Part shown: positions 46,653 through 64,000 of the stretch, piece after piece
Layout of the letters: every line of letters begins with the position of its first letter
How positions within the stretch are numbered: the first letter of the stretch is position 1
Source of the DNA: Planctomycetota bacterium
GTDB taxonomy: Bacteria; Planctomycetota; Planctomycetia; Planctomycetales; Planctomycetaceae
Direction: 5' to 3'
Length of the DNA stretch: 64,000 bases
Assembly (NCBI GenBank): GCA_022600195.1
Contig: JAHZKX010000068.1
Span: 2,184 to 66,183, forward strand
Program-made: the position numbers and the translations under genes
The notes under the pieces: model-generated
Seen by the model: the letters and a program-made list of their open reading frames with translations, nothing else
Told to the model about the DNA's origin: nothing
Databases searched by the model: none

Positions 46653-46761
46653 AGTTCACAATTCCTTAGTTTCCGTGTCAGCAATTTCATTAAGTCGACT
46701 TAGAATATTCTGCCAGACGACTATTAATTCAAGAATCATACTTTTAAAGAAAGATGATATA

Positions 46762-47463: not shown

Positions 47464-47484
47464 CACCATATTATTCTACTCAAA

Positions 47485-49713
47485 GTGGATTTCATGAGAT
47501 ACGAAGTATTCATTTGGTTTTCAACACTCATACCGATCATGGGAGTTGTTCCACTTCAAGCCGCTGACTTGCAGAACGCGGATCTTGAACAAAATGATGG
47601 CTGGCAAATTGTTACACGAGGCAATCTTTTTCGAGCAGCGTTCGTCAAAGATACCTCTCAAACTGGCAAACAAAGTTTTACAGTTTCACTTGCCGATGAT
47701 TCCCCTACCAAGAAAGAAGATTTTGCCGGAATTGTCCAGACCGTAGAACTTACTCAGGCGGACAAGGGTATTTCATTCTTTGTCAAAGATAACTATACAG
47801 GCAAGACAAAGAGCTATCATTGGATGGAATTGCTTTTGGATGACGACGTAATCTGGGAAGCTGATGTTGCTGGCGGCAATACCGAATGGCAACAGGTTAC
47901 ATTAGATCTGACCCGCTACTTGAAGCAGGTGAAGCGAAAATTAATTGGTCGCAACAAATACCGTCATGAAAAAAATTACAAAATCACATTCCGAGTCTAT
48001 GAGAGGAAAGCCGTCAACCGATTTGGAATTCAAGTCTGGGCAGATAACTTTCAATTGTTGAGAGAAACACCGACCAACCCTCAGAATTGCGAAAAGAAAA
48101 AAGTGAAGCCCCGGCTCAAAGAATTGCTGGTCTATTATGACGAAAACGATCTATTCCAACCTATAACGACTTTGGATCACTTCAAGCAAAAGCGTCAGCA
48201 AATCCTTGAAGGAATGCTGGATGGTATGGGTAAATTGCCTGCTCGCCCAACCCGGCGCAGTCTTGAAGACTTTCACATTCAGGTAATCAACACACAAGTG
48301 CGAGGCCGCTATACCAAGAAGACGATCTCATTTAATGCAGCAGAGGACGAGGTCGTGCATGCATTTCTTTACGAACCGCTCGACAAGCAATCTGGTGAAA
48401 AGCGGCCTGGAATCGTTGGTATGCACCCGACTGGTAGTACGGGTAAAAGCAGTTTTGAAAGCTGGCCACTGTGCAATTTCCCTATTGAACTGGCCATGAT
48501 GGGTTATGTGGTCATCGTGCCGGATTACCCTGGCTTTGGTGATTCAAGACCTTACGATTACGAAACCGACCGATATGACTCCGGGACAATCAAAGGTGTT
48601 TTTAACCATATGAGCTGTGTTGATTTATTACAGCGACATCCTGATGTTGACCCGAATAAAATCGGGACGATTGGCCATTCATTAGGCGGCCACAATGCCA
48701 TGTTTCTGGCAGCATTTGACGAGCGCGTCAAGATTGCAGTATCCAGTTGTGGTTGGACACCATTCGAGTATTACGAAACGAAAAAAGGGAGACTCAAAAC
48801 CTGGGCGCTTCCCCAGTATATGCCACCCTTGGAGACGCGCTACCATTCGGATCATACACAATTCCCTTTCGATTTTCATGAAGTGGCAGCCGCCATTGCA
48901 CCGCGCGTCTTCTTTTCCAGTTCCCCGAGTAACGATGGTGTATTTCCGGGATGGGGCCCCAAGTCTGCAGAATTGTCTATTAAAAAATACTTCAGGGCCC
49001 GTGGAGCTGAGCAAGCTTTTCAATTTCACCAGCCCCTCGCTCAGCATCGATTTCCCTGGGATACGCGCCAAGCGGCGTATCGTTCAATGAATGATACGTT
49101 CGACTATCATTTTCATGGCAATCTGGGATTACTGGCAGAACGCAAGGGAGCGGACTCGATTCCCATTCTAAAGAAAGCCCTGGACGACAACGATCCGAAA
49201 GTTCGCTGGTCAGCGGCGAGCATGCTCGTTACTTTGAAAGACGCCAGTGGTCTGGAGCAGATGAAGCAAGACCTCAAGACCTTTACCTCCGAGCAGAAGT
49301 ACGCAGAGCATGCTCTTGAAGTGGCGAATGTACTGGCCCGGCTGGGTGATAACAGTGGCTACGAGTTAGCTGCAAATTTAGCTACGAAAGGAACAACACC
49401 TGGTCAACGTTGGCGTGCCGCTATTGTGCTATCTCATATTGCGAATACTAATAAGAATGTTCTGCAAGCTAAAGGCATGGATCCCATCGCCGTGCTGAAG
49501 ACCATGGCAGCCGAGGAGAAAGATGAAGGGGTGTTTTTCGTATTACTCGATCAACTGCATAAGATTCTAAAAGATCGAACTGTCATGATTGAAATTTTCG
49601 CAATCGCCAAGGACTCGAAATATCATTCGGAACCACCTCCGGGAAATCGATTTCGCATCGCTGAAGTCTTTTATTCCGTCGCGGTAAGAGATAAAGACAA
49701 GACTTGGCGCTAG
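47485..49713 (+). CDS. Secreted multidomain hydrolase: beta-sandwich + alpha/beta hydrolase + HEAT-like repeats
   Basis: Central GMHPTG, PDYPGFG, IGHSLGGHN, IAPR, HRFP; C-terminal LKKALDDNDPKVRWSAA. Confidence 0.78.
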   Translation: MDFMRYEVFIWFSTLIPIMGVVPLQAADLQNADLEQNDGWQIVTRGNLFRAAFVKDTSQTGKQSFTVSLADDSPTKKEDFAGIVQTVELTQADKGISFFVKDNYTGKTKSYHWMELLLDDDVIWEADVAGGNTEWQQVTLDLTRYLKQVKRKLIGRNKYRHEKNYKITFRVYERKAVNRFGIQVWADNFQLLRETPTNPQNCEKKKVKPRLKELLVYYDENDLFQPITTLDHFKQKRQQILEGMLDGMGKLPARPTRRSLEDFHIQVINTQVRGRYTKKTISFNAAEDEVVHAFLYEPLDKQSGEKRPGIVGMHPTGSTGKSSFESWPLCNFPIELAMMGYVVIVPDYPGFGDSRPYDYETDRYDSGTIKGVFNHMSCVDLLQRHPDVDPNKIGTIGHSLGGHNAMFLAAFDERVKIAVSSCGWTPFEYYETKKGRLKTWALPQYMPPLETRYHSDHTQFPFDFHEVAAAIAPRVFFSSSPSNDGVFPGWGPKSAELSIKKYFRARGAEQAFQFHQPLAQHRFPWDTRQAAYRSMNDTFDYHFHGNLGLLAERKGADSIPILKKALDDNDPKVRWSAASMLVTLKDASGLEQMKQDLKTFTSEQKYAEHALEVANVLARLGDNSGYELAANLATKGTTPGQRWRAAIVLSHIANTNKNVLQAKGMDPIAVLKTMAAEEKDEGVFFVLLDQLHKILKDRTVMIEIFAIAKDSKYHSEPPPGNRFRIAEVFYSVAVRDKDKTWR

Positions 49714-49858
49714 AGTCAACTCAGAAGATATTCTGAATGTGCCTGTCTCGTGGAGCATATTGACTTACGAAGGCGTTGTGTTATCATCCATTGCAGTAGC
49801 GTTAAGGCCTGAACACAAAAGAGTGCTGACGTTGTACGTCAGACAAGGATGCAAGCTC

Positions 49859-50572
49859 ATGTTGCCATACTTTCGTATTATAATGATCTCTCTGTCCGGT
49901 TCCTGCCTGCTGTTCGCGGGTTGCAGCGAGAGTGCCCCTGCTCCTGCCAACGACGCGAACCTGGCTGACAATCAGCCTATGTCGAATGGGTACGGCTACG
50001 GTGCAGTTGAGGACATCATTTTTCAGGATTCATTAAAGTCGAATGCTTCTGTCGAACAAAGTTTTTCAGAACTTAAATTCATCGACACAAATGGAAAACC
50101 TGTCCAACTGAGTGAATTTATTGGCAAGAAAAATCTTGTACTGGTTTTCACTCGGGGTTTTGCTGGTAGTATCTGCCCCTACTGCGCAACACAAACGTCA
50201 CGTCTCATTTCAAACTACGAAAGTATTACCAAACGAAACGCAGAAGTGATTGTTGTTTATCCTCTGAGTAGCGATACAGACATCCCACGTTGGGATGAGT
50301 TTCTGGCTGCGACGCGTGCAAAACTTTCATCACCCGAGTCACCAGTTCCCTTTCCGGTTCTGTTAGATATTAAATTGGACGCCGTCAATCAACTGGGAAT
50401 CCAGGACAAATTGGCTAAGCCGGCTACTTATATCGTCGACACGCAGGGACAGATTCGTTTTGCTTACGTCGGCTCCACATTGGCGGACCGACCTTCCATT
50501 AAAGCCATGCTTGAGCAGCTGGACAAACTCAATCCCGTCACGCCAGTTACTGAAGACAAATCGAGCAAATAA
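49859..50572 (+). CDS. Peroxiredoxin-like (AhpC/TSA) lipoprotein with CPYC motif
   Basis: Lipobox FAGC, LVFTRGFAGSICPYC, PATYIVD..G.IRF. Probable start ATG 49859. Confidence 0.85.
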   Translation: MLPYFRIIMISLSGSCLLFAGCSESAPAPANDANLADNQPMSNGYGYGAVEDIIFQDSLKSNASVEQSFSELKFIDTNGKPVQLSEFIGKKNLVLVFTRGFAGSICPYCATQTSRLISNYESITKRNAEVIVVYPLSSDTDIPRWDEFLAATRAKLSSPESPVPFPVLLDIKLDAVNQLGIQDKLAKPATYIVDTQGQIRFAYVGSTLADRPSIKAMLEQLDKLNPVTPVTEDKSSK

Positions 50573-52428
50573 TGTCATCTGATGAGTCGTCTCATGATAG
50601 TCGGGAATTCTTTTCCATTGCTGCTAAGCTGAACTTGATGTCAACCGAGATGGCTCAACAGTTAACCGATGAGGCTATCGCTGGAAACTCGCATCCTACG
50701 CAAATCATTCTACAAAAAGGATTGCTGGATAATGTAGAGATCGATATCGTTCAGACACTTCTGCATTCGACCGAAATCATACCCGACTATGAAATTCTTG
50801 ATGTTCTTGGGAAAGGGGGTATGGGCGTTGTTTACCGTGCGAAGCAGTTAAGTCTGGATCGAATTGTCGCACTCAAGACAGTGCTTGTCAGCCAGATAGG
50901 TAATCCGAACATGACCAACCGCTTCGAACGCGAAGCGGTCACTGTTGCACGTTTAAAACATCCCAATATCGTCGCTGCGTACGACTTTGGTCAACATGAC
51001 AGCAGGTTATTTCTGGCCATGGAGTTTGTGGATGGTGAAGATGTCGAAAAACTGATTGTCAAACAAGATCAACTGGACGAAGCGACAACCCTGGGCATCA
51101 TTCGCCAAGTCGCCTCCGGACTGTCGCATGCACAACAACTCGGTATTGTACATCGCGATATCAAGCCGGCCAACTTATTGCTTGTTGAACCACCGGAATG
51201 GTTTCCGCTGCCTGCAGGCGTCCCCATGGTCAAGATTACTGACTTTGGGCTGGCTTTTTTGACACAGGAACAGAGCGTGCAAACCAGGCTGACGGCCGCG
51301 AATGCCTCTGTGGGCAGCCCACACTACATGTCGCCGGAGCAAATCAATGGCCACGATGTAGACCATCGCTCTGATATCTATGCATTAGGTGTGACAATGT
51401 ATCACATGCTTGCAGGTCGACCTCCTTTTAAAGGGAATAGCATCCCTCAAATCATTGCACAGAAATTGAGTGGGGAAACGAAATCATTAAGTGCAGGACC
51501 GAATGTTGTGTCCGAGGAGACGTCTCAACTTGTTAATGACATGCTGAAATTGAAAGCAGACGACCGGTTAGATGATTACAACCATTTAATAAGTCGAATC
51601 GACGCAACACTGCAAAAACGGCTCACGCTGCAGGTGGGCACAGAATCCGGCAGTGACACTCTTACCACCATCTTAGAAAGACCGCCCGCACAATCTCTGC
51701 CGACCACCGAAGTCAACCAGACTGGTACTCGTAATTACCGACGCTATTTTATGATGGCAACCATACTGATCTCGGTTTTATTAATCGTCAGTTTGTTGCT
51801 GATTCTCAACCCAGGTGCTCCAACAACGCCCGTACGAGATATGAGTTCCAGCGGCTGGAGCGAACCTTTGTTTAACGGCCAGACCCTGGGTGTGATGCCA
51901 TCCAGTGGAAGTTGGACTGTCGACAAAGATGACGAGGGAGCTTCGGTCATTTCCGGTAGCAACGGTATGATTCGACGGCCATTACTTCGCAGTGACCTGA
52001 GCCCACCGCGGCCGCTGAAAAACTACAAGCTCCTGTTATTCGTTCGTCTGCACGACGCCACAGCGGTTGAACTTCATTTTGGAATTGCTGCGGACCAGAA
52101 TCGTAATGGTATCCGATCTGTATTACGCGTGACCCCGGAACACGTTGTATTAGCCACAAAGCCCAATGATCGAGGCTCACTTTCAGAAGTGACGGCTCCT
52201 GTTGTTATCAACAATCCGAACGGACAATATCATGTTGTTGAACTGGAACATCAGCATGGACATTGGTGGATTTTCTTCGACGATCAATTGATCGGTACGG
52301 TGCATTCGCAAGAGAACGCGATACTGCCTGAAATCCGTCTTGCAGTCGAGGGAGGCCCCGCCTGGTTCGCAGATTTACAGGTGGATGAGCTTGTCCCAGC
52401 GATTAAAGGTTCCCATCCAAAAAATTGA
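50572..52428 (+). CDS. Membrane-anchored Ser/Thr protein kinase with C-terminal DUF1080/concanavalin-like domain
   Basis: LGKGGMGVVY, VALK, HRDIKPAN, DFG, GSPHYMSPE, DIYALG, TM helix, then PLFNG. Confidence 0.93.
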   Translation: MSSDESSHDSREFFSIAAKLNLMSTEMAQQLTDEAIAGNSHPTQIILQKGLLDNVEIDIVQTLLHSTEIIPDYEILDVLGKGGMGVVYRAKQLSLDRIVALKTVLVSQIGNPNMTNRFEREAVTVARLKHPNIVAAYDFGQHDSRLFLAMEFVDGEDVEKLIVKQDQLDEATTLGIIRQVASGLSHAQQLGIVHRDIKPANLLLVEPPEWFPLPAGVPMVKITDFGLAFLTQEQSVQTRLTAANASVGSPHYMSPEQINGHDVDHRSDIYALGVTMYHMLAGRPPFKGNSIPQIIAQKLSGETKSLSAGPNVVSEETSQLVNDMLKLKADDRLDDYNHLISRIDATLQKRLTLQVGTESGSDTLTTILERPPAQSLPTTEVNQTGTRNYRRYFMMATILISVLLIVSLLLILNPGAPTTPVRDMSSSGWSEPLFNGQTLGVMPSSGSWTVDKDDEGASVISGSNGMIRRPLLRSDLSPPRPLKNYKLLLFVRLHDATAVELHFGIAADQNRNGIRSVLRVTPEHVVLATKPNDRGSLSEVTAPVVINNPNGQYHVVELEHQHGHWWIFFDDQLIGTVHSQENAILPEIRLAVEGGPAWFADLQVDELVPAIKGSHPKN

Positions 52429-52694
52429 GCAGGTAATCTTCGGATCGCAAACAAGAGAAGACTCCTGCCAGCGCCTTAAACGCGAGGCCAATAATAAAAC
52501 GAGCTGTCGTCACAGGTGGCTCGGGGCGGTTGGGCCGTGAAGTAATTCGGAAGTTGATATCCCGATAAAATGTTCGTCCACAGTAGATAATTCGACAATT
52601 CTATTGCCTTATCTGTCCCCCTGTTGATTTTCATCCAGTCCTACCTTTATAGTTAGATAAAAGATATCTCCCCTCAACAGGAAGGACTCAATAA

Positions 52695-54290
52695 ATGTTG
52701 TCAACGATTGATCATCAATGGAACTTAACCAGAAGTAATTATGCGGCAAGATTTTTGTCAGCGATTCTGACTTTATTCAGTATGTTTTTTCTGGAATCAG
52801 TGACGATTGCCGGCGAACAGCCCAATATTATTTATATTCTCGCCGATGACCTCGGCTATGGCGATGTCAGTTGTTACAACGCGGAATCTAAAATTCGAAC
52901 GCCACATATTGACCAGCTTGCAGCGCAGGGAATGAAGTTTACCGATGCACACACGCCTTCTGCCGTTTGCACACCAACGCGTTACGGGATTCTAACGGGG
53001 CGTTACTGCTGGCGGACACGTTTGAAGTACCGCGTGCTGGACGGTTTTGACCCGCCTTTAATTGAAAAAGATCGTCCGACAGTGCCCTCTCAGCTCAAAC
53101 AGGCTGGCTACGATACGGCTTGCGTAGGCAAATGGCATCTGGGGATGCAATGGACTGAAAAACCAGGCCAGCCTGTGCCTGCCGTTCCTATAGATCGTAG
53201 AAAGCGTCCACGCGTGGGAGATGATGTTGATTACACTCAAGCAGTCACCGGCGGCCCTCTCGATGTTGGATTTGACTGGTATTTCGGCATTTCCGCTTCG
53301 TTGAACATGTCTCCTTTTTGTTATATCGAAAATGACCGACCTGTGATTATTCCCACGATCGAATCAGAAAGAATCAAAACCGAATTTCTCTCTGTCGATC
53401 AAGGCATGCGCTCTCCTGATTTTACAATTTCCGGAGTCATGCCCACACTTACCGGACAGGCAGTGCGTTACATTGAACGACATTCAAAGGAGTCTCCTGA
53501 CCGGCCCTTCTTCCTGTATTTCCCGCTGACAGCGCCGCATTTGCCATTAGTACCCAATGACGAGTTTCGTGGAAAAAGTAAGGCTGGCGAGTATGGGGAT
53601 TTTGTTCTCGAAGTCGATGCCACCGTTGGTGCGATTCTGGAAGTACTCAAACGAACTGATGAAGCAGAGAATACATTGATCATTTTCACTTCCGATAACG
53701 GCGGTTTGTATCACTGGTGGACGCCACAGGAAGCTGATGACTTGAAGAATTATCGACTGACACATCGTGCAAAGTATGTCAAAGAGCGTGGCCATCAGGG
53801 AAATGCGCATCTGCGAGGCACGAAAGCAGATATCTGGGAAGGTGGCCATCGTGTTCCGTTTATTGCCCGCTGGCCCGATCATGTTCCCGCTGGTTCAACG
53901 AGTGATGCGTTGATCGAATTGACCGATTTGATGGCGACCTGCGCGGCAATCACAGGCACCAAACTTCCTGCGGGTGCAGCCAAAGACAGTCGTAATATTC
54001 TGCCCGCCTTGCTCGGCAAGAAAAGCGACAGACCTTTACGCGAATATGCGATACATCATTCGTTATGGGGTAACTTTGCTGTCCGACAGGGGCCATGGAA
54101 AATGATCCCTACCCGCGGTTCGGGAGGTTTCACTTATCCCCGTGACATCAAACCAGCCAAAGGAGAACCGACGGGACAACTTTACCACTTAACGGACGAT
54201 CCTTCTGAAACAAAAAACTTATGGAGTAAGCATCCCGAAGTTGTGCAACGTCTTTCTCTTCTACTGGAGAAAGTACAAAAACAGGACTAA
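52695..54290 (+). CDS. Cys-type sulfatase (arylsulfatase A-like)
   Basis: LADDLGYGD, CTPTR, GKWHLG, APHLP, SDNG. Confidence 0.93.
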   Translation: MLSTIDHQWNLTRSNYAARFLSAILTLFSMFFLESVTIAGEQPNIIYILADDLGYGDVSCYNAESKIRTPHIDQLAAQGMKFTDAHTPSAVCTPTRYGILTGRYCWRTRLKYRVLDGFDPPLIEKDRPTVPSQLKQAGYDTACVGKWHLGMQWTEKPGQPVPAVPIDRRKRPRVGDDVDYTQAVTGGPLDVGFDWYFGISASLNMSPFCYIENDRPVIIPTIESERIKTEFLSVDQGMRSPDFTISGVMPTLTGQAVRYIERHSKESPDRPFFLYFPLTAPHLPLVPNDEFRGKSKAGEYGDFVLEVDATVGAILEVLKRTDEAENTLIIFTSDNGGLYHWWTPQEADDLKNYRLTHRAKYVKERGHQGNAHLRGTKADIWEGGHRVPFIARWPDHVPAGSTSDALIELTDLMATCAAITGTKLPAGAAKDSRNILPALLGKKSDRPLREYAIHHSLWGNFAVRQGPWKMIPTRGSGGFTYPRDIKPAKGEPTGQLYHLTDDPSETKNLWSKHPEVVQRLSLLLEKVQKQD

Positions 54291-54418
54291 TGAATGGGTA
54301 AACCGATGAATGACACTGACATCAATGACTGGTTTACCGATAATGGATTGTCAAGCGAAGTGCAAAGTGAGCTTTTTCCCCCTTCAGTTTCATCAGAAGA
54401 AGAAGTGTCTCTATTTTA

Positions 54419-55996
54419 TCAGGGAAGTTTCGGTCTCAATGGTTTGCTCCCATCTTTTGTCACGGGATAGAGTCCGTTGTGCGATTCCATGCTGGCAATC
54501 AATTGCTGCATCATTTTACGAAGCTGTTTCGGCTTTGAATCGGCCAGATTGTTCTGCTCAAAGGGATCAGCCGCAAGGTTATAAAGTTGATAGTGCGAGC
54601 CTTCGGAATCTTTTGAAGGAACGTAGTGATAGATCACTTTCCAGTCCCCGTTGCGATAACTGGTGAAGTAATTGCTACGATGAGGCGAGTGAGGATAGTG
54701 CATGAGAAATGTCTGCTCGCGTGAACTGTCAGGATTGCCTGTCAGCAGTTTGTCGAGCCGTAACCCATCGACAACGTGTTTCTCTGGCGATTTCGTTCCT
54801 GTGAAGTTGAGGATCGTTGGGAACAGATCCTGTACTGCTGCGGTTTGTGTTTGAATGGTGTCGGCAGGGATCGGGAGTCGCTTTTGATTTGGATTGCCAG
54901 GATTACTCTTCGCCCAGGCGGCAATGAATGGCACGCGCATGCCCCCTTCATAGTGAGCTCCTTTTTTCCCGCGTAGTGGAGCGGCACAAGCGACGGCATG
55001 CTGATGCCCTAAAGGTGCATCCGATCCATTGTCACCCAGAAAAAAGACCAATGTATTCTCAGCAACGCCAAGCTTTTCGATTTGATCCAGAATGTCGCCC
55101 AGCGATTTGTCCATGCCTTCAATCAAGGTTGCAAAGGCTTGTGCGGCTTTCGGTTTGTCTGAATTTTTATAATGGGCGGCGAAACGCGGATCGGAATCGA
55201 AGGGTGCATGGACTGCGTAATGTGCCATGTAGAGGAAGAAAGGTTTATCCGCCTCTACGGCTGCGGTGACCGCGGCATTGGCTTCGATCGTTATGGCTTC
55301 GGTCAGAAAGGTTTCTGTGCCATGATATTTTTCCAGATGCGGAACGGCGTGATGAGCTCGTCTCGTACCAAGGCCATACTTCTTTTCACCATAATAACTG
55401 CCGGGAGCACCGAATGAAGCACCTGCGATATTGATATCAAAACCGAGATTCGCTGGATTGGCACCTGGAAAATCGCGCGCACCAAAATGTCCTTTGCCAA
55501 CGTGAATTGTTTCATAACCGTTTTTTTGCAGCAGTCGGGCTAACGTAATATCGTTTTTCTTCAAGCCTTCCCAGTTCCACTCTGGGGGCCCCTGAGGTCC
55601 CCGATTATTCTTGGTAGGATTAATCCAGTTGGTGGCGTGATGTCGGGCTGCATTTTGCCCGGTCATAATAGAAATGCGTGTGGGCGAGCAGACACTCATC
55701 GCATAGAAATTATTGAATCGAATGCCCTGCTTCGCCAACCGTTCCATACTGGGAGTGATATAAAAGTCGTTGAGTGGATAACGCTTTGGCTGCCCTTTTG
55801 CATCAGTCAGAAAGGGAACTGAAGTATCCATGACTCCCATGTCATCGACAAGGAACACCACAATATTTGGTTTTTGCTTCTGTTTTTTTTGAATGTTTGC
55901 GTCGACTGCTGAATTCAGTCCGGAAACCAAGAACAGAAACAGAACAAGAGAGTTGAGAATAATCAGTCGCGTAATGCGTGAGTAGTGAGGCCTCAT
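54419..55996 (-). CDS. Cys-type sulfatase
   Basis: VDDMG, CSPTR, GKGHFG, VHAP, GDNG. Probable start ATG 55996. Confidence 0.92.
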   Translation of the reverse strand: MRPHYSRITRLIILNSLVLFLFLVSGLNSAVDANIQKKQKQKPNIVVFLVDDMGVMDTSVPFLTDAKGQPKRYPLNDFYITPSMERLAKQGIRFNNFYAMSVCSPTRISIMTGQNAARHHATNWINPTKNNRGPQGPPEWNWEGLKKNDITLARLLQKNGYETIHVGKGHFGARDFPGANPANLGFDINIAGASFGAPGSYYGEKKYGLGTRRAHHAVPHLEKYHGTETFLTEAITIEANAAVTAAVEADKPFFLYMAHYAVHAPFDSDPRFAAHYKNSDKPKAAQAFATLIEGMDKSLGDILDQIEKLGVAENTLVFFLGDNGSDAPLGHQHAVACAAPLRGKKGAHYEGGMRVPFIAAWAKSNPGNPNQKRLPIPADTIQTQTAAVQDLFPTILNFTGTKSPEKHVVDGLRLDKLLTGNPDSSREQTFLMHYPHSPHRSNYFTSYRNGDWKVIYHYVPSKDSEGSHYQLYNLAADPFEQNNLADSKPKQLRKMMQQLIASMESHNGLYPVTKDGSKPLRPKLP

Positions 55997-56241
55997 GGAG
56001 TGATAAACTTCCTTATTTTGTAATCTCGTAACTGGGTGAGCACGGGACCAATGCAGGACCGCTTTGCTTTTAATATAACACCCTGCCCCCGCCAATGTCT
56101 AACGATCTTGTAGTTTCGACAGTATTTTGTTGCTCACAAACGAGGGCTCAATTAGAATCAGGGTGACCAATATCGAGAACCCATGAATCCCTGCTAATAG
56201 TGACGAGATACAGACCGTTTCTTTGAGAGATTGAATTCATC

Positions 56242-56880
56242 ATGACTGCAAAAGAATCTTTTTGGACGGTCCTTCTCAGCATTGTCACCTTTACCTTTAT
56301 CGGTGGTGCCTCAGGTCTGATTGTTAGCGTTGTTGCACCAAACTATTACGACTCTGTATTTTACCCCAGACAATCGGATCGAATTGATCCGTTTATTGGA
56401 GGAATCCGTTTGGGTGCTTCTCAAGGAGTCGCAGTGGGAATCGTGATTGCATTGGTGATTCTCGCTGTGACTGCTATTCGTGAAAGCCAAGCTTATTACG
56501 CCAAAATTGCAAATCAGTCTTCTCATGATAGTCAACACCGACGGTCCTGGACTGCCATCCTGTTCTGGATCTCTTCGACATTGATACTGGTAACAATATT
56601 TAGCACGATATCTTTCATTCTGGGCGCCGTCATTGAAGATCAGCGGCATATTAATAATCGGACCACAGAAAAAATTGAGAAACTCAAAACCATTCTCGCA
56701 ACAGACACCTATCCCGATCTGGAAATCATGGCCTCATCGGCGGCTCAAGTGTTTCTAGTCGGCACGGTTCCTGACCAGGACACACGAACTACATTATTCC
56801 AACAATTGATAACAGTCTTTGGAACTGATGAAGCCGAGAATATGTTTTATCTGGTTGATGTTCAAGAGACGCCTGACTGA
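56242..56880 (+). CDS. Hypothetical membrane protein with C-terminal BON-like domain
   Basis: Three hydrophobic segments; C-terminal VFLVGTVPDQDTRTTL. Confidence 0.55.
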   Translation: MTAKESFWTVLLSIVTFTFIGGASGLIVSVVAPNYYDSVFYPRQSDRIDPFIGGIRLGASQGVAVGIVIALVILAVTAIRESQAYYAKIANQSSHDSQHRRSWTAILFWISSTLILVTIFSTISFILGAVIEDQRHINNRTTEKIEKLKTILATDTYPDLEIMASSAAQVFLVGTVPDQDTRTTLFQQLITVFGTDEAENMFYLVDVQETPD

Positions 56881-56942
56881 GGAATACTTTTGTCAACTTT
56901 ACCAAATACATAGAACTATATTTTATTTCTTTGGAAAATTAG

Positions 56943-57668
56943 ATGCCGGAAAAATACTTTGTTGAATGTGATTGTGGGAAACGAGTCAGAGTTGAACTTT
57001 ACGAAGCGGGAACAGATTAATCATGCCATTCCTGTCACCGAACTGTGCCCGTTTCCGATACTATCACCCTTCAGGAATCATCGGGCGACAAATATCCGCT
57101 ATTGAGGCCATTAGAGAAGCTCAAACGTACTCTTGAGCTAGGCGAAGCCCCGTTCGACGGTCTCTGTCACCACTGTGAAGAGGCAGATGCCGCCTTTCAG
57201 ATTCCGATTATTTTAAATGTTGTCGTTGAACGATACATGGAAAATGATGGTGGTATTCGCCCAACAGTCAGTCCAACTCTCAAAGTTGGTATTAAGCTTG
57301 TTGCAGCTGAAGCTGAAGAATATTCTGAAGAAACAAACTTTCCACTCTTGTTATGCAAGCAATGTAATGCAGAATATGAAGCCGCACAAAAAGCAGCCAG
57401 CAGGAAAAGCATGCTGGGGCTTTTTGCACTTTTAGGACTACTCGTTGCATTTTTGATCTTTGCTTATTTTAACGCAGCAGTGGTCGCGTTACTCTCAGGC
57501 ATTCTGTGGTTGATTGGTGCTATAGCATGGGCATCCCGGTTTAGAGATACTAAAAAAATTGACTCGTTTATCAAACCCTGGCTAAACGACATCCGCTGGG
57601 TTCCTGAAGCTCTCGCGTTGGAAGATGAGTACACACTATCGACGGGTGAATCCAAAACATTCAGATAA
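56943..57668 (+). pseudogene. Zinc-ribbon membrane protein interrupted by an in-frame TAA at 57018-57020
   Basis: MPEKYFVECDCGKRVRVELYEAGTD*SCHSCHRTVP continues in frame into the 57045 ORF, which has two TM helices and a further CxxC...CxxC. Confidence 0.75.
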
Positions 57669-57750
57669 AACACTGTTTCTTAGAAGTCCCAGTGCAACCA
57701 TTATCAATTTCAGAAACACGCAATGCATTCTCTCAGGATTACATTTGATA

Positions 57751-58023
57751 TTACTCAATATCTTTGAGTTCGAATTCAAATCCTCCCAACCAACTGGCTA
57801 ACAAGTTATAGATAAATGCGAACAAGGCAAAAAAGATAAATCCGAATACTCCCATAATAATGGGCATCAACAAGTAAACTATTCCTATGACTCGAAGCTG
57901 GTCACCACCAAAAAGAATCATAGGAATGCCGATTAACGTGTAGATAAAGCCCATCAGTACGTACAACGCCGCCATTATTTTGCTGGATTGCAGAATAGAG
58001 ATGCGAATCACTTGTTTTTTCAT
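57751..58023 (-). CDS. Small two-TM protein, DUF3566-like
   Basis: IRISILQSSKI...FAFIYNLLASWLGGFEFEL. Confidence 0.75.
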   Translation of the reverse strand: MKKQVIRISILQSSKIMAALYVLMGFIYTLIGIPMILFGGDQLRVIGIVYLLMPIIMGVFGFIFFALFAFIYNLLASWLGGFEFELKDIE

Positions 58024-58191
58024 TAGAGGTGCTCCCAGGTCAGATGTTGTATTAGTTTGAACCTGTTCCAGGCTCTCATTTTAAACAGTATGCCACAATA
58101 CATTTCTCAAATCCATTAAATAATATTCCAAGCCTTCTCATTAACTTTCCTATACTTCCTTTTCACGGTCTCTGTCCCGCGAATTGTACTA

Positions 58192-58206
58192 TTCTGAGTC
58201 TCAGAA
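58192..58206. promoter_or_regulatory. Perfect 7-1-7 palindrome in a divergent promoter region
   Basis: TTCTGAG-T-CTCAGAA, about 170 bp from each flanking start codon. Confidence 0.5.
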
Positions 58207-58373
58207 CTTGTATTTATTCAATATGTGGAACAAAATGAAAGTCTGACGCATCTAAACGACTGGTCTGGTATAGAGAGGCAGCCACTCTGGCTGAAGGCAT
58301 TTGTCTGAGCTGAGCTATCAGAAACATGCTGTTCAATCCAACCATTCGATTACTTAATTGAGGATGAGTAATA

Positions 58374-59255
58374 ATGCAAACTAATCATCGATCTCGATTT
58401 CTCGCCTTTAGTTTCGTCATCTTAACGTCGCCCGTCTTTGCAGCATCAGGCGACAAAATCCCCTGGTCGGCTGATCAAGCCACTGGAGCGCCCAATTCTC
58501 TTAAAGCAGGCGATCAGAAAACTGCCTGGGCATCTCTGCAGGAAAACAAGGGAAGCGAATGGATCAAGCTGGAGTATCAGACACCCAAAGAAGTCCAAGC
58601 GGTTCGCATTCATGAAAACTTTAATCCGGGGGCGATCAGTAAAGTCACTGCGTTTGATGCAGACGGAAAGGAAGTTCTTGTTTGGGAAGGAACGGAGCCT
58701 GTCCACAAAGCCCCCAATATTTTTGAAGTGAAAGCGCAGTCAAAAATTGTATCGCAATCAATCAAGATTTACCTCGACACCAAGCGAATCAGGGGCTGGA
58801 ACGAAATTGATGCCGTTCAACTGCTGGGAGGGGATGGATCCAAGCAGTGGGCAGTTAAGGCATCTGCCAGCAGCACATACGCATCCAGAAGCTCAAGATC
58901 GGGCAATATGGAACTCACCCTGAAATCACTGCCGCCTTCGGTCATTAATACTGTTCCTCAGGCAGGTAGCGCTGAAGTTGATCCCGCTCTTAAGGAAATC
59001 AGTGTTACCTTCAGTAAAGACATGATCACCGATCGCATGTGGGCTGTCGTTCAGATTTCGAAGGAGACATTTCCAAAAACCGGGAAGAATATACATTACA
59101 AAGATGATAAACGCACCTGCGTTATCCCTGTTACATTAGAGCCTGACAAGACCTATGTCATGTGGTTCAACAAGGGCAGATATAATAGTTTTCGAGACAC
59201 TGAAAACAACCCATCAGTGCCATACCTGCTGGTGTTTAAGACAAAATCTAAATAA
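58374..59255 (+). CDS. Secreted protein: discoidin/galactose-binding-like beta-sandwich + Ig-like (SbsA/Big_5-type) domain
   Basis: Signal peptide; WSADQATGAP...AWAS...EWIKLEY...NEIDAVQL; PPSVINTVP...ISVTFSKDM...YVMWFN. Confidence 0.7.
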   Translation: MQTNHRSRFLAFSFVILTSPVFAASGDKIPWSADQATGAPNSLKAGDQKTAWASLQENKGSEWIKLEYQTPKEVQAVRIHENFNPGAISKVTAFDADGKEVLVWEGTEPVHKAPNIFEVKAQSKIVSQSIKIYLDTKRIRGWNEIDAVQLLGGDGSKQWAVKASASSTYASRSSRSGNMELTLKSLPPSVINTVPQAGSAEVDPALKEISVTFSKDMITDRMWAVVQISKETFPKTGKNIHYKDDKRTCVIPVTLEPDKTYVMWFNKGRYNSFRDTENNPSVPYLLVFKTKSK

Positions 59256-59345
59256 CTCGAAAATGTATCTGGAAACCATCCAAACAGAGGCATGGCAATC
59301 CCCATCAATTACAGTTGTCTGACCAGAGAAAGAAGGAGCCAGAGG

Positions 59346-60812
59346 ATGTCCCGCAATCTAAGCAGCCTGGTAATTTTGGCATTTTGTTTTTTTTCGCATA
59401 ATGCAATTGCTACAGACAAAGGGGCAAATCAAGCGCCGCACAATGCGAAGTCCTTCGAGTCGCGTATGCTTACCATCACTGATGTTGTCTTAGAACAACA
59501 CATCGATCCACCAACAAGGCAACAGATGATTCTTGCCGGTGTCAAAGCACTTTACCAGACAGACAAGCGTCCGATTCCCAAGGGTCTGAGCCAACGCATT
59601 TCTGATCTGACAAAACCCAGAGAGTTTACGGATTTCTTAAAAGGCATTCTGTCAGAATTCAGTGAGTTAAAAAACAGGGAATCTATTCTGATACGGGGCA
59701 TGTTAAGTTCCCTGCCCTGCGGTGCTCATATCGTGAACGCGGAAGCCAACAAAGTGCAGGGGCAACTTGCCGCCAATCGCTATGTCGGCATCGGGATCGC
59801 TTTGACAATGAATAAGCAAGAAAAATATCCGGCCATTCCCAATGTAATTTACAATGGGCCCGCGTGGAGGGCTGGCGTCAAACCCAATGATCTCATCCTG
59901 AAGGTAAATGGCCAAAGTATGAAGTCAAAGGATCTTGTACAGGCTGTGAAATCTCTGCGAGGTGAAGAAGGCTCTGAGGTGAGAATTGAGGTTCGACAAC
60001 CCGGCTCGCAGGAATCGCGCAAATTGAAGATGACGCGCGGCCGCGTGTTCATTCCCACGGTCGAAGGTTCTCGGAAAAAATCTGAGGGGGAGTGGTACTA
60101 CAAATTCAGTTCTGCTGACGACATAGCCTACCTTCGTATCAAGAAGATTGGTTCGAGTACACTTCATGAGTTGCGACAGGTAGAAGCAAAGCTCCGGGAT
60201 CAAAATATCAAAGGTATCATTCTTGACCTGCGTTCTACTGGCGGCATCCTGCACGACACGATTATGGTTGCAGACAACCTGCTGGACGGCGGAGTGATCG
60301 GTTATGTTCAGTCTGTAGATTCTCGCAAAAAACACGAAGCGCGGCCTGGGTCACTCTTTCAAAACATTCCGATGGTCGTGCTGGTTGGAAAACAGACCGG
60401 TTCTGGCAGCGTCTTCCTGACCGCGGCATTGCAAGACAACAAACGCGCCTTTGTTGTTGGTGAACCTACAAATGGCCAGACTTATGTCCGATCAAACATA
60501 CTTCTTCCCGATCAGAACAATCATATTGTGATGGCAACTGGTTTATTACAACGTGGCGACGGAACGACGCTGCTCGTGTCACGATTTCGTTCATCACCTT
60601 TAAGGACAATCAAGGTTGGAAAGACGAAACAACAAAAAACAAGGACGAATTTCATCATGCCCGACCATGTCGTTAAAACCAGCAATCAAATCGTGAATCG
60701 AAGTAAAGCGCCAACCCACTCAGCAACAATCCGCAAAGCCATCGAAGTATTGAGAAACACTCCCCCGCAGTTTACGACTCAGCCAGAAACCAAAGAAACT
60801 TCCGGATCATAA
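59346..60812 (+). CDS. S41 (tail-specific/CtpA) protease homolog with PDZ domain, catalytic Lys lost
   Basis: YVGIGI PDZ, GPAWRAG, IAYLRI, ILDLRSTGG; TGSGSV and TNGQ replace SASASE and TFGK. Probable start ATG 59346. Confidence 0.82.
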   Translation: MSRNLSSLVILAFCFFSHNAIATDKGANQAPHNAKSFESRMLTITDVVLEQHIDPPTRQQMILAGVKALYQTDKRPIPKGLSQRISDLTKPREFTDFLKGILSEFSELKNRESILIRGMLSSLPCGAHIVNAEANKVQGQLAANRYVGIGIALTMNKQEKYPAIPNVIYNGPAWRAGVKPNDLILKVNGQSMKSKDLVQAVKSLRGEEGSEVRIEVRQPGSQESRKLKMTRGRVFIPTVEGSRKKSEGEWYYKFSSADDIAYLRIKKIGSSTLHELRQVEAKLRDQNIKGIILDLRSTGGILHDTIMVADNLLDGGVIGYVQSVDSRKKHEARPGSLFQNIPMVVLVGKQTGSGSVFLTAALQDNKRAFVVGEPTNGQTYVRSNILLPDQNNHIVMATGLLQRGDGTTLLVSRFRSSPLRTIKVGKTKQQKTRTNFIMPDHVVKTSNQIVNRSKAPTHSATIRKAIEVLRNTPPQFTTQPETKETSGS

Positions 60813-60813
60813 T

Positions 60814-62565
60814 ATGCACCGTCCCTTAGTCATTCTCTTTATTGCGTTGCTGACCACGTCTTTGGTACGAGCCGACGTCAAAAAAATTGAACCGCGATTG
60901 AGAAGACCTGTCGCCATAGCGGCTTCAGAAAACTACAAATGGCTTTATGTCGCAAATCGAGACAGCGGTAGTATATCAATCGTCGATATACCAGCTCGGT
61001 CAGTGTCGAACGAGATCGATTTGAAAGGACATCTCTCGGATCTGGCGATGTTGGATGACTCGCATCTTTTAGCATTAGATAAAAAGAATCACCAATTGAT
61101 CATGCTAAAAGGAAGTGGCGATCAATGGAAAGTCGCCTCAAGACTGGATATCGCTCATTACCCCGTGCGGTTGAAGGTCGATCGCGCTGCAAAACGCTGC
61201 TACATCACATCGTTATGGTCACAGAGAGTTACGATGGTTGACCTGTCTGAGGTTGACGAAAATCAACAACCGCGGCTCAGGATCGTAATGAGTCTACTAT
61301 TGCCTTTTGAACCTCTTGAGATGTGCCTGGCCAGAGACGGAAAGAACTTGATCGTAGCTGGCGCGTATAAAAACTCTCTCGCTGTGATTGAAACTAATGG
61401 GCTGAAATTAATCGTAACCAAGAAAGTGTCTGGTCACAACATTCGAGGTTTAGCCATCAGCGGGGATGGAGAACGCGTCTTGCTCGCGCAACAGGAACTG
61501 AATCCGCTCGGTCAATCAACTCGTGACGATGTGCACTGGGGCAATATGCTTACAAACCTGTTAGTCTCTTTATCGCTGGATGATCTTATTGAAGTCGATG
61601 CAGATCTCCTGAAACATCGTATCGTGACTCATTTGGGAGAACCTGAAAACGGCGCCGGTGACCCAGGCCCCATCAACGTAACTTCGACCGGCATGTTATT
61701 AATCGTGCTTTCTGGCGTGAATGAAATTGCGATTCAAAAACACAAAGACAGTTTTGATTTCCAGCGGGTTTCACTTGGCCGTCGTCCCATCGCAGTCCTT
61801 TCCGCACCCGATGGTCGACTGTTCGTCGCCAATCAGTTTTCTGATTCCATTTCCCTGATTGATGTGAGCCGTGTAAAACAGGTTGACCAAATTCCCCTGG
61901 GCCCTCAGCGAGAATTGAGCCCTGAAGAACGGGGAGAGATGCTGTTTTTTGACAGTCGACTTTCACATGACGGCTGGATGAGCTGCCATAGCTGTCACAC
62001 AGACGGGCACTCGAGCGATCAATTGAATGACAATTTGAGCGATGGTTCATTTGGTGCCCCGAAGCGTGTGCTTTCTCTTTTGGGTGTTGGACAATCGGGC
62101 CCCTGGGCATGGGACGGAAACGTAAAAACGCTCTCACAGCAGGTTAAGAATTCCATTCAGAAAACAATGCAGGGAGCCACTCCCTCCGCTCATCAAGTTG
62201 AGTTTCTGGAGGCGTTCATGAAATCGTTATCTCCGCCACCTGCTCCTTCTGATTTTGCTACAACACAAAACAGTGCCACGATCGAACGTGGTCGCCTGTT
62301 ATTCAAATCGTTGAATTGTCAACGTTGCCATCTCCCCCCGACATACACATCCCCTAAAACTTTTGATGTAGGGTTGAAAGACGAGATGGGTAATACACAA
62401 TTTAATCCCCCCTCACTGCTGGCAGTCAGTCGACGTTCGTCATTCTTTCATGATGGCCGGTCTCTTGAACTTCATGATGTTTTTAAAACACACAAACATC
62501 AGATCGACCGAGTGTTAACAGAACCTGAACTCGACGCTTTACTGAATTTTCTGAGGACACTCTGA
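60814..62565 (+). CDS. YncE/YVTN-like beta-propeller fused to a diheme cytochrome c (CcP/MauG superfamily-like) domain
   Basis: Signal peptide, LYVANRDSGSISIVD and LFVANQFSDSISLID repeats, CHSCH (61984) and CQRCH (62317), PSL...FFHDG. Confidence 0.85.
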   Translation: MHRPLVILFIALLTTSLVRADVKKIEPRLRRPVAIAASENYKWLYVANRDSGSISIVDIPARSVSNEIDLKGHLSDLAMLDDSHLLALDKKNHQLIMLKGSGDQWKVASRLDIAHYPVRLKVDRAAKRCYITSLWSQRVTMVDLSEVDENQQPRLRIVMSLLLPFEPLEMCLARDGKNLIVAGAYKNSLAVIETNGLKLIVTKKVSGHNIRGLAISGDGERVLLAQQELNPLGQSTRDDVHWGNMLTNLLVSLSLDDLIEVDADLLKHRIVTHLGEPENGAGDPGPINVTSTGMLLIVLSGVNEIAIQKHKDSFDFQRVSLGRRPIAVLSAPDGRLFVANQFSDSISLIDVSRVKQVDQIPLGPQRELSPEERGEMLFFDSRLSHDGWMSCHSCHTDGHSSDQLNDNLSDGSFGAPKRVLSLLGVGQSGPWAWDGNVKTLSQQVKNSIQKTMQGATPSAHQVEFLEAFMKSLSPPPAPSDFATTQNSATIERGRLLFKSLNCQRCHLPPTYTSPKTFDVGLKDEMGNTQFNPPSLLAVSRRSSFFHDGRSLELHDVFKTHKHQIDRVLTEPELDALLNFLRTL

Positions 62566-63038
62566 ATTTCTGTACCTTGGTTTTTTGAATCCATGAGTAC
62601 AAATCATTATTGCTCTTCAGTTCACCTTCAACATACATCTCTTTTGAACTGAACCCTTTCACAAGACACCAATTGCAACCCACAAAACAGATCTCAATAC
62701 TGAAGTAGGACAAAGTTAAACCTACGTCATCTGAGACAGTAGATCGTTTGTTAAAAAGATTATCCTATTTTATTATCCGTAGCGAGATGCTATCATCTGA
62801 ACCGTTATTCCAGCCTTTATCCAGGCTTGCTTTATCGTCTCAAAGTCAATTTGAAACGCAAACAATCAAATGAAAGACGCAATTGCCAAATGGAGTGAGT
62901 TCTAGAAACACTATCGGCGGGCCTGCTCTTTATGCTGTTTTTAGTCGTCAGAATCAAATGAAATCGCATGCTGAAAAATCATTTTTCCAGCCTGTGGGAT
63001 CACATGCATTCTTTCAAATATAAAAATTAAGCAAATCT

Positions 63039-64000
63039 ATGGCAGGCACAACGAAAGCAGAGCTCGTCGAAGAAGTGAATCAGCTTCGACATCGTATAAG
63101 CATCTTAGAGCAACAGCGCAAAAACTCCGCGCATGCCAACTTTTCCAGCATCGATGACGCTGCCAAGGATAAAACATACGAGTCCAATTGGTTGAATCAG
63201 ATTTACAGAGACGCTCCTGTGGGGCTTTGTTATCTTGACAGACAACTGCGTTATGTCAACATTAACGAATGGCTCGCCGCTCTGAACGGACTCTCTGTAG
63301 AAGAACATCTTGGGCGTTCTATCAGCGAATTGTTCCCGGAGATCGCCAGGGAGGTTGAAGCACAACTTTTCCACGTACTCGAAACAGGGGAACCTCTCCT
63401 GGAGGGAGTGGTTTCCGCAGAAACCCCCTCCCAGCCGAATATACTAAAGTATGTTCAATACAATTTTCTTGCGGTCAGGGACGAAGACGACAGCATCGTT
63501 GGCGTCAGTTGTACGGCAATAGAAATCACAGAGCAAAAACACGCAGAAATGCTGCTGCAGAATTCACAAGATGAAATGGAACATCGTATCGCGGCGCGGA
63601 CACATGAACTGGAAGTAGCGAACGCGCAATTAGTATCGGAAGTAAAGGAAAGAAAAGCAGCAGAGCAATCACTAAAATCCGATCAACGTAAGCTGCAATT
63701 TTCTCTCAATGCCACCGGCACCAGTTGCTGGGAAATCAATCTTAAAACAGATGAGCTTACCACACAAAGGCCGACGACCACATGGATGGGATATGAACCT
63801 GCCGAAGTTCCCAAAAGCCGAGAAGCGTGGAAAAGCTTAATTCATTCCGAAGATATCGATATTCCAAATAATAAATTCCTGGACCACCTGGAAGGTCGTG
63901 CCCCCATATATGTGTGTGAGTACCGTGTGCGGGGAAAATCGGGTGAGTGGTACTGGATACTCGACCGTGGCATTCTCGTTCAACGCGATACCGATGGCTC
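63039..64000 (+). CDS. PAS domain sensor protein (probably a histidine kinase), truncated by the window end
   Basis: Not in the ORF track. My translation from ATG 63039: APVGLCYLDRQLRYVNINEWLA (PAS), coiled coil RIAARTHELEVANAQL, then W...IHSED...CEYRVRGKSGEWYWILDRG (PAS). Confidence 0.88.
   Translation, partial: MAGTTKAELVEEVNQLRHRISILEQQRKNSAHANFSSIDDAAKDKTYESNWLNQIYRDAPVGLCYLDRQLRYVNINEWLAALNGLSVEEHLGRSISELFPEIAREVEAQLFHVLETGEPLLEGVVSAETPSQPNILKYVQYNFLAVRDEDDSIVGVSCTAIEITEQKHAEMLLQNSQDEMEHRIAARTHELEVANAQLVSEVKERKAAEQSLKSDQRKLQFSLNATGTSCWEINLKTDELTTQRPTTTWMGYEPAEVPKSREAWKSLIHSEDIDIPNNKFLDHLEGRAPIYVCEYRVRGKSGEWYWILDRGILVQRDTDG

Follow-up and report, generated by a model that had tools for sequence, protein, structure and literature searches.

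A conserved gene pair for a PDZ-S41 pseudo-protease and a propeller-dihaem cytochrome in Planctomycetota

Hydrazine synthase β-γ combines a secreted seven-bladed β-propeller with a following CcP-like dihaem domain. The anammox β and γ chains are fused in Scalindua, and more than 100 fused β-γ-like proteins are reported from diverse phyla, non-anammox homologues among them; an S41 pseudo-protease partner for such proteins is not mentioned there (Hagglund et al. 2025, PMC12758564). The dihaem CcPs (those of P. aeruginosa and Nitrosomonas, and MacA of Geobacter) and MauG have in common two CXXCH motifs, the Trp of a WDG sequence, a Gln ten residues beyond that Trp, and an F-H-D sequence. Among S41 proteases CtpA, CtpB, Prc/Tsp and the D1 protease are built from an N-terminal helical domain, a PDZ domain and an S41 core, and in CtpA-LbcA and Prc-NlpI the protease has a dedicated partner protein, a TPR lipoprotein. 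S41 and PDZ proteases participate in sigma/anti-sigma signalling, and IRBP exemplifies an S41 homologue that is non-catalytic and binds ligands.

The locus described here, from a Gimesia (planctomycete) genome, encodes relatives of several of these proteins side by side. Our preferred reading, to which we assign a probability of about one in two, is that two of its genes form a periplasmic module in which a redox-active cytochrome is accompanied by a non-proteolytic PDZ-S41 protein with a binding or regulatory role.

Layout of the locus

Within the window (the whole 64,000-nucleotide stretch analysed), three co-oriented genes stand where a preliminary description of the same DNA had placed them (Table 1). 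Each begins with a hydrophobic N-terminus consistent with a Sec signal peptide, as judged by inspection in the case of gene 1, and a single base separates the TAA stop codon of gene 2 from the ATG of gene 3, again as described. Translation of gene 2 probably begins at Met19 rather than at the first codon of the open reading frame, since GAAGGAG precedes it and its position agrees with the starts of orthologues.

Table 1. Positions of genes, key residues and other features, numbered from the first letter of the window
Feature	Position	Strand	Remarks
Palindrome TTCTGAG-T-CTCAGAA	58192..58206	.	7-1-7, in upstream region common to relative; one occurrence in window
Lineage-specific insertion, ~990 bp	58319..59305	+	carries gene 1; from alignment to L107; operon leader copy duplicated at flank
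Gene 1 (P0001)	58374-59255	+	293 aa, secreted, discoidin-like domain and Big_5 Ig-like domain
Gene 2 (P0002)	ORF 59292-60812, likely start 59346	+	signal peptide, N-terminal helical domain, PDZ, S41 core
Ser371, S41 nucleophile position	60402..60404	+	kept here; A/S/G/P/T across clade
Gln396, S41 catalytic Lys position	60477..60479	+	Lys in 3/121 clade members
Gene 3 (P0003)	60814-62565	+	583 aa, signal peptide, β-propeller, CcP/MauG-type dihaem domain
Haem motif 1, C391-H-S-C-H395	61984..61998	+	invariant
Asp410	62041..62043	+	invariant; occupies CcP distal His ligand position
Trp433	62110..62112	+	invariant; counterpart of CcP/MauG inter-haem Trp
Haem motif 2, C502-Q-R-C-H506	62317..62331	+	invariant
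His562	62497..62499	+	invariant; candidate sixth ligand, haem 2

The proposal that all three genes make up one unit did not survive comparison with related loci: genes 2 and 3 recur together across planctomycetes, and gene 1 is missing from the relatives. What stands of the periplasmic enzyme-like unit is thus a genuine and widely conserved pair whose S41 member appears dead. In alignment with L107, the nearest relative, window positions 56001-58318 correspond to L107 607-2940 at 80% identity and positions 59306-60001 to L107 2914-3609, with the operon leader duplicated around the intervening DNA. Gene 1 is absent from the closest relative (73% identity) and from Gimesia aquarii, and a search across the related loci found no homologue. 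Its product matches Pfam Big_5 (1.3e-7), with a weak F5/8-C match besides, and genomes elsewhere in the same family have the two domains separately. As judged from these alignments, gene 1 came recently into the operon leader, as an insertion specific to this lineage, and it lies outside the conserved module.

The upstream palindrome, described earlier as perfect over 15 bp, is present as two arms of seven bases about an unpaired centre, and it is neither distinctive nor conserved. Perfect 7-1-7 palindromes number 10 in the window against some 3.9 in shuffled sequence; this one is degraded in L107, where the upstream region is otherwise 80% identical, and its sequence was found in none of 108 related loci (0/108). 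It does not behave like an operator, probably lacks a function and falls outside the conserved module.

The propeller-dihaem cytochrome

The gene 3 product comprises a seven-bladed YVTN-type propeller (approximately residues 30-362) and a dihaem cytochrome c domain (approximately residues 365-583), the latter matching Pfam CCP_MauG above cut-off (1.2e-19) and aligning with bacterial CcPs. Its AlphaFold model (pLDDT 91, pTM 0.90) is a single rigid body, and a structure search returned hydrazine synthase β (5c2v_B, E 6e-19, TM 0.76) as the top PDB match, the propeller being the region concerned. The domain order is that of hydrazine synthase β-γ, yet scores against the corresponding NCBIfam models fall far below the cut-offs (hydrazine_beta 48 against 560 bits, hydrazine_gamma 17 against 625, hydrazine_BC 28 against 1250), and the inter-haem Trp is kept where hydrazine synthase has His. 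No homologue of the hydrazine synthase α-subunit was found among the window genes in 45132-64000 or among conserved neighbours.

Comparison with CcPs and MauG gives a mixed picture. Both CXXCH motifs and Trp433 are invariant among 120 relatives of gene 3, and the F-H-D sequence is shared too. The distal Gln, which a companion note to the preliminary description had counted as lost, is in fact present as Gln443 (Trp+10) and invariant; the position of the catalytic Glu, 453 (Trp+20), is occupied by Gln, Arg or His. These two offsets follow the numbering of P. aeruginosa CcP and MauG. The distal His of CcP is replaced by the invariant Asp410, and the Asn of the calcium site by Arg418 in 97% of the relatives. 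Position 560, equivalent to the Met ligand of CcPs or the Tyr of MauG, varies between His, Tyr, Phe, Gln and Arg (His in the window protein, Tyr in 26 of the 120 relatives), with the invariant His562 two residues further on. Hence the haem motifs and Trp of dihaem CcPs are retained, whereas the Gln/Glu pair, the His/Met haem and the Ca2+ site are not intact. From this residue pattern, haem 2 is probably bis-His ligated through His562, as has been described for haem γ-II of hydrazine synthase. Other departures from CcPs and MauG are the N-terminal propeller itself and the end of the chain, which stops straight after an FLxxL helix.

Two specific identities were considered for gene 3 and rejected. 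For MauG, TIGR03791 gives 45 bits where 443.85 are required, and the axial Tyr position is His here and variable in the family; the window ORFs inspected over roughly 13 kb upstream include no mau genes. For MbnH, the TIGR04039 score is 30.3 bits against 362.85, and there is no MbnP-like conserved neighbour.

In the preferred reading gene 3 would be the redox-active part of the pair, an HZS-β-like propeller fused to a CcP/MauG/HZS-γ-like dihaem domain. The distal pocket is conserved yet non-canonical in its invariant Asp410, Gln443 and Trp433 and in the Arg418 that replaces the calcium-site Asn. The most likely activity would be to reduce or sense some small oxidant, for instance peroxide or an N-oxide.

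The pseudo-protease and its pairing with the cytochrome

The fold of gene 2 is plainly that of the S41 proteases, as shown by Pfam matches to S41 (1.6e-25, 90 bits) and PDZ_6 (1.5e-12, 47.5 bits) and by a best Foldseek match to CtpA (8sxg, E 3e-24, TM 0.68). The score against TIGR00225, at 167.1 bits, is under the cut-off of 218.6, and the Ser-Lys dyad of active members has been lost from the clade. The earlier statement that both enzyme-like proteins lack canonical catalytic residues is correct for the gene 2 Lys and for the Glu, calcium-site Asn and Met ligand of gene 3; gene 3 keeps its distal Gln, and gene 2 keeps Ser371. This Ser is retained in the window protein and its four nearest relatives, and could in principle serve a still active protease with another general base. 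Such activity is extremely unlikely: the same position is Pro in a 73%-identical relative and Ala or Gly in most of the clade, and the K-G-x-V-Q motif has other residues in place of its Lys and of the Gln that follows. The four S41 paralogues encoded by the host genome retain both Ser and Lys. Because dN/dS lies between 0.10 and 0.18, gene 2 is best regarded as a maintained pseudo-protease under purifying selection; its S41 clade is predicted from these residues to be catalytically dead throughout. The carboxylate-binding loop of the PDZ domain, NRYVGxGI, is conserved.

An S41-like gene lies directly upstream of the cytochrome gene and on the same strand in several related loci (L001, L002, L004, L005, L012 and L105/6), and such a partner is found in 27-31 of 78 species-representative cytochrome loci, so that some 35-40% of loci are paired and about 60% are not. 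Viewed from the other gene the association is closer: look-ups begun at the pseudo-protease met a propeller(-CCP) gene next in six cases out of six, the cytochrome gene is directly downstream of every pseudo-protease checked but one, and more than 30 contigs appear common to the two lists of matches. Gene order is strictly kept, intergenic gaps are mostly below about 30 nt or replaced by overlaps, and the paired state is grouped in clades within the Planctomycetaceae, Pirellulaceae, Isosphaeraceae and Gemmataceae. By gene content and order, then, the conserved unit is a two-gene, predicted periplasmic module that extends across Planctomycetota. The S41-like gene is the only conserved neighbour of the cytochrome loci, and no conserved gene nearby is a candidate substrate. 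Just one natural fusion joins the two genes, P0045, and it is probably decayed, being 5'-truncated and retaining an internal signal peptide.

Gene 2 would most likely be a dedicated non-catalytic binding or regulatory partner of the cytochrome. In this it would resemble CtpA and Prc with their LbcA and NlpI, save that its own partner is a haem protein. Whether the two touch was approached with an AlphaFold model of the read-through chain of both genes, which, from a mostly unpaired alignment and judged on pTM, reached 0.58 against 0.90 for the cytochrome by itself. Since both halves were confident, no defined interface is predicted, which argues weakly against contact. The result would suit a shared operon without a stable complex, gene 2 being either a transient chaperone for maturation or quality control or an unrelated periplasmic binding protein in the manner of IRBP, a ligand-binding, non-catalytic S41 homologue. 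Paired and unpaired cytochromes are also almost indistinguishable, a single residue position discriminating between them. We nevertheless consider an operon without a complex very unlikely in view of the strict order and very tight spacing of the genes over deep divergence, and of the retention of the cytochrome gene even beside pseudo-proteases fused to sigma factors.

The preliminary description had envisaged substrate presentation. On such a model client proteins would be captured by their C-termini through the PDZ domain and then oxidatively modified by the dihaem domain, as MauG and MbnH do with their targets, and gene 1 would supply either a third subunit or the substrate. Membership of the CCP_MauG superfamily, the lost peroxidase Glu, the MauG-like Tyr at position 560 of some relatives and the conserved PDZ loop are all compatible with such a scheme. 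It is nonetheless unlikely, given that gene 1 is a recent arrival, that no conserved neighbour could encode a substrate, that position 560 drifts while His562 is invariant, that the MauG and MbnH family scores are so low, that many orthologous cytochromes function without the partner and that no interface between genes 2 and 3 is predicted. The free C-terminus of the cytochrome itself, F-L-R/K-S/T-L/I, is conserved and tempting as a PDZ ligand, yet it is equally so in unpaired orthologues.

Sigma-factor fusions and the possible role of the pair

At least 44 relatives of gene 2 (counted as clusters) begin with an ECF sigma factor that a membrane helix joins to the pseudo-protease, which forms the C-terminal, extracytoplasmic part; in P0226 and P0237, for example, sigma70 regions 2 and 4 and a transmembrane helix precede the S41-like domain. 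Wherever checked, the fusion gene is followed by a cytochrome gene. Other members of the same sigma family, which we take to be 'ECF01-Gob'-like where the extracytoplasmic domain is of WD40 type, bear WD40, carboxypeptidase-regulatory-like or other domains. Most pseudo-proteases of the clade are soluble with a signal peptide only, and the window protein is of this kind, lacking the sigma and transmembrane parts. Since the gene 2-type module serves as the extracytoplasmic domain of a sigma factor, its interaction would be usable as a signal, and the fusions point towards a binding or signalling role for the pseudo-protease over substrate presentation.

Taken to its limit this would give pure signalling, the cytochrome acting as a haem sensor without turnover and the pseudo-protease, even when it stands alone, relaying to a membrane partner (an ECF sigma factor or Ser/Thr kinase). 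The fusions fit, as does the arrangement in G156, where 7 nt separate a clade member from the ECF sigma gene that follows it; in Gimesia relatives the module has around it an ECF sigma gene, divergent and extended, together with a pair downstream that encodes an AhpC/TSA redoxin and a Ser/Thr kinase. Against it, 6 kb separate the window pair from the redoxin-kinase genes, and window positions 45132-64000 were found to hold no sigma factor gene; 7 of 80 loci have an ECF sigma gene at 6 kb or less from the cytochrome, which, on a rough estimate of planctomycete sigma-gene density, is presumably near chance; and the soluble form predominates. We hold pure signalling to be unlikely.

A bolder and frankly tentative reading, less likely than not, is that the pair is an unrecognised periplasmic haem-based redox sensor, in which a dead PDZ-S41 'clamp' responds to the state of the dihaem protein as set by an oxidant or ligand. 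The clamp would be either free, as in the window, or linked covalently to an ECF sigma factor through a membrane helix. If so, planctomycetes would possess a one-polypeptide sigma factor and sensor switched by a partner cytochrome, and the non-anammox relatives of hydrazine synthase β-γ would gain a functional setting. Gene surroundings in relatives also fit a redox role for the module, as in the preferred reading: besides the redoxin-kinase genes of Gimesia relatives, AhpC-AhpD is encoded upstream of one unpaired cytochrome orthologue, and a globin gene adjoins the locus L110.

Composition of the conserved unit

Comparison with related loci shows that the real unit is a two-gene module, composed of a clade-wide dead PDZ-S41 protein (gene 2) and a dihaem cytochrome similar to hydrazine synthase (HZS) beta-gamma (gene 3). 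The preliminary description had envisaged a three-gene periplasmic operon, and the arrangement on which this was based is present as described: three co-oriented ORFs (Table) encode proteins with hydrophobic, signal-peptide-like N-termini, and a single base lies between the TAA stop codon of gene 2 and the ATG of gene 3. The window belongs to a Gimesia species (Planctomycetota). The closest database match of the gene 3 protein, 98% identical, is labelled Gimesia sp.; the assembly containing the window totals 6.6 Mb in 84 contigs. An Rfam scan of 56000-64000 gave no matches.

Metagenomic loci at 46-54% identity carry a co-oriented S41-like gene directly upstream of the cytochrome, as do the cytochrome loci of two Gimesia aquarii genomes and of a further genome, G094. 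The same applies to 27-31 of 78 species-representative loci spanning Planctomycetaceae, Pirellulaceae, Isosphaeraceae and Gemmataceae, among which no other conserved neighbour of the cytochrome was found. Looking up loci from the pseudo-protease side, a propeller(-CCP) gene was immediately downstream in six cases out of six, at identities down to 30%, and more than 30 source contigs are apparently common to the match lists of the two proteins. The gap between paired genes is mostly less than 30 nt, or the genes overlap. Paired cytochromes group together in a tree of 101 sequences, at least eight state changes being required: the window falls in a 13-member clade that is entirely paired, further paired clades occur in Isosphaeraceae and Gemmataceae, and a Pirellulaceae-rich clade of 39 members contains no pair (30 unpaired, nine with too short an upstream sequence). 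Neighbourhood conservation extends to genes 2 and 3 but not to gene 1, which is present at none of the related loci examined.

The sole exception to the pairing is locus L112 of genome G156 (2013-4643), where the gene that begins 7 nt after a member of the pseudo-protease clade encodes a 205-residue ECF sigma factor rather than a cytochrome. At L016 of genome G200 (4815-6599) the start of a cytochrome orthologue is overlapped by a distant S41-family gene that has no PDZ domain and is aligned with Gly at the Lys position, possibly a case of independent pairing with a different type of S41.

Coordinates of the features discussed (window positions unless a locus is named)
Feature	Location or proteins	Strand	Remarks
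Gene 1 ORF	58374-59255	+	293 aa
Gene 2 ORF	59292-60812	+	506 aa; likely start Met19 at 59346
Gene 3 ORF	60814-62565	+	583 aa
Palindrome TTCTGAG-T-CTCAGAA	58192-58206		7-1-7
AhpC/TSA redoxin then Ser/Thr kinase	49739-52428		6 kb upstream of module
AhpC/TSA redoxin then Ser/Thr kinase	Related loci L004 159-2755 and L105 7042-9590		immediately downstream of cytochrome
Sigma-TM-dead PDZ-S41 fusions	P0226, P0237, P0251-P0290		metagenomic, 750-907 aa; source name 'C-terminal peptidase prc'

Gene 1 insertion and palindrome

The gene 1 protein has a weak discoidin-like match in its N-terminal part and a Big_5 Ig-like domain in its C-terminal part. Its origin was examined by comparison with L107, a metagenomic contig encoding an S41-like protein 73% identical to that of gene 2. 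Window positions 56001-58318 match L107 607-2940 at 80% identity and 59306-60001 match L107 2914-3609; therefore about 990 bp, including gene 1, have no counterpart in L107. In this comparison the last ~40 bases of the operon leader are found on each side of the insert, and the pseudo-protease gene has its leader and ribosome-binding region in two copies (58290-58373 and 59256-59345), flanking the insertion. By the same comparison, the true start of gene 2 is probably Met19, preceded by GAAGGAG, the start at 59292 lying 18 codons too early. No gene 1 homologue was detected in L107/L108, L105, G. aquarii or the other related loci examined, and its two domains are found apart from each other in other genomes of the family. 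With gene 1 confined to an insertion and lacking relatives at all other loci examined, the three-gene operon is rejected as a conserved unit.

The 15-bp palindrome reported upstream of the genes is indeed there, but is neither special nor conserved. The whole window contains ten perfect 7-1-7 palindromes compared to about 3.9 in mononucleotide shuffles (~2.5x); the arms are unpaired in the nearest relative, although the upstream region is 80% identical; and the core occurs in none of 108 related loci searched. A function as an operator is unsupported on these grounds. Neither gene 1 nor the palindrome should be kept in the model.

The pseudo-protease and the cytochrome

The gene 2 protein comprises PDZ and Peptidase_S41 domains, scoring under the TIGR00225 cut-off, and its predicted structure is like those of CtpA, CtpB, D1 protease and Prc. 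Its supposed loss of canonical catalytic residues holds in part: on alignment to P. aeruginosa CtpA the catalytic Lys is replaced by Gln396, but the nucleophile Ser is retained (Ser371). Among 121 members of the clade, E, D, Q, N, A and similar residues occupy the Lys column, with Lys in only three, and the Ser column is mostly A, S, G, P or T. Four further S41 proteins of the same genome, taken as controls, retain S-A-S-A-S-E and K-G-x-V-Q. Conserved in the clade are the motifs that define the fold and the NRYVGxGI loop of the PDZ domain. For gene 2, dN/dS is 0.18 against L107 (dS 0.88) and 0.10-0.14 against relatives further away; the cytochrome gives a similar 0.12-0.13. By these comparisons gene 2 is a maintained pseudo-protease, and its clade is ancient, selectively maintained and bacterial. 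The current labels for this clade, 'carboxyl-terminal processing protease' and 'C-terminal peptidase prc', are misleading.

Gene 3 encodes a YVTN/lactonase-type propeller plus a CCP_MauG domain, with weak, sub-threshold matches to the hydrazine synthase beta and beta-gamma fusion models. Its AlphaFold model (112-sequence alignment) is a single rigid body with pLDDT 91 and pTM 0.90, the top PDB match being hydrazine synthase beta (5c2v_B, E 6e-19, TM 0.76) and the second an archaeal YVTN propeller; the dihaem domain is alignable to bacterial cytochrome c peroxidases (CcPs). Invariant in 120 relatives are both CXXCH motifs, Trp433, Gln443 (Trp+10), His546, His562 and Asp410, this last at the distal-His position of CcP. 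The invariance of Gln443 contradicts a companion note that had the distal Gln lost. The more general statement that the dihaem member lacks canonical catalytic residues is borne out: the catalytic-Glu position (Trp+20) is Q, R or H in these relatives, position 560 (Met/Tyr ligand) is H, Y, F, Q or R, and Arg418 is 97% conserved at the Ca-site Asn position. Since all three positions are replaced, gene 3 is not a canonical peroxidase or MauG, and since its pocket is strongly conserved, an altered activity is favoured over a dead enzyme.

Outside anammox bacteria, hydrazine synthase beta-gamma has its nearest relatives in fused propeller-dihaem proteins. A 2025 paper reports numerous fused proteins of beta-gamma-like type from non-anammox bacteria as distant hydrazine synthase homologues (PMC12758564), an S41 partner not being mentioned in that work; our own literature search for S41/cytochrome pairing found nothing specific. 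New here are the obligate, catalytically dead S41/PDZ partner of a large subset of these proteins and the repeated conversion of that partner into what would be the sensor domain of ECF sigma factors anchored in the membrane. These findings are descriptive; both the cytochrome's chemistry and a contact of the two proteins are putative.

Possible protein contact and links to sigma factors

Pairing and sigma fusion together suggest a concrete candidate interaction between two proteins, with a possible output in regulation. Most likely the pseudo-protease serves the cytochrome as a partner for binding or regulation, without catalysis; presentation of substrates to the dihaem protein, as originally suggested, may occur, but nothing specific supports it. 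Genes 2 and 3, read through the TAA-T junction as one 1072-residue chain, were folded using an alignment of unpaired homologues together with five natural pairs that were likewise read through. The resulting AlphaFold model has confident halves, pTM 0.58 and no defined interface and, being without PAE or coordinates, counts as weak negative evidence. The cytochrome C-terminus, F-L-R/K-S/T-L/I in 112 of 120 relatives, was considered as a PDZ ligand but does not discriminate, as orthologues lacking the partner have it just as often. Only one residue separates paired from unpaired cytochromes (D238 vs N).

The only natural fusion, P0045 (L003 634-3363), joins a 5'-truncated pseudo-protease in frame to the cytochrome. 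It was discarded as Rosetta-stone evidence: the truncation of its S41 part falls within the PDZ domain, and a signal peptide is kept internally. This fusion, and a frameshift that splits the cytochrome gene at L109 (5391-7362), look like the result of gene decay or of faulty assembly.

N-terminal ECF sigma regions 2 and 4, plus one transmembrane helix (around residues 255-280), are present in eight of the first 120 pseudo-protease matches, and a dedicated search yielded at least 44 such sigma-TM-PDZ-S41 clusters (90% identity). In both of the two fusions looked up, the cytochrome (propeller-CCP) gene lies 3-10 nt downstream; further sigma-fusion contigs apparently also occur in the cytochrome match list, fitting the same arrangement. 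Other members of the fused sigma family carry WD40 or different extracytoplasmic domains. In some lineages, the pseudo-protease/cytochrome interaction would have come to provide the input for a membrane-bound ECF sigma factor. No sigma gene is found in the examined stretch 45132-64000 of the window, and ECF sigma genes lie near the pair at 7 of 80 loci, which we take, from a rough estimate of the density of planctomycete sigma genes, to be no more than chance.

In G. aquarii and one other relative, the gene order is sulfatase, pseudo-protease, cytochrome, AhpC/TSA redoxin and Ser/Thr kinase, flanked on the sulfatase side by a divergent extended ECF sigma gene; the window has the redoxin and kinase genes elsewhere (Table). 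A bacterial globin gene (L110 2931-3314) lies divergently upstream of a distant pseudo-protease/cytochrome pair (30% identity). At L013 of genome G156 (4855-6142) an unpaired cytochrome orthologue is directly downstream of AhpC and AhpD-like (CMD) genes, neighbours that hint at a peroxide-related role.
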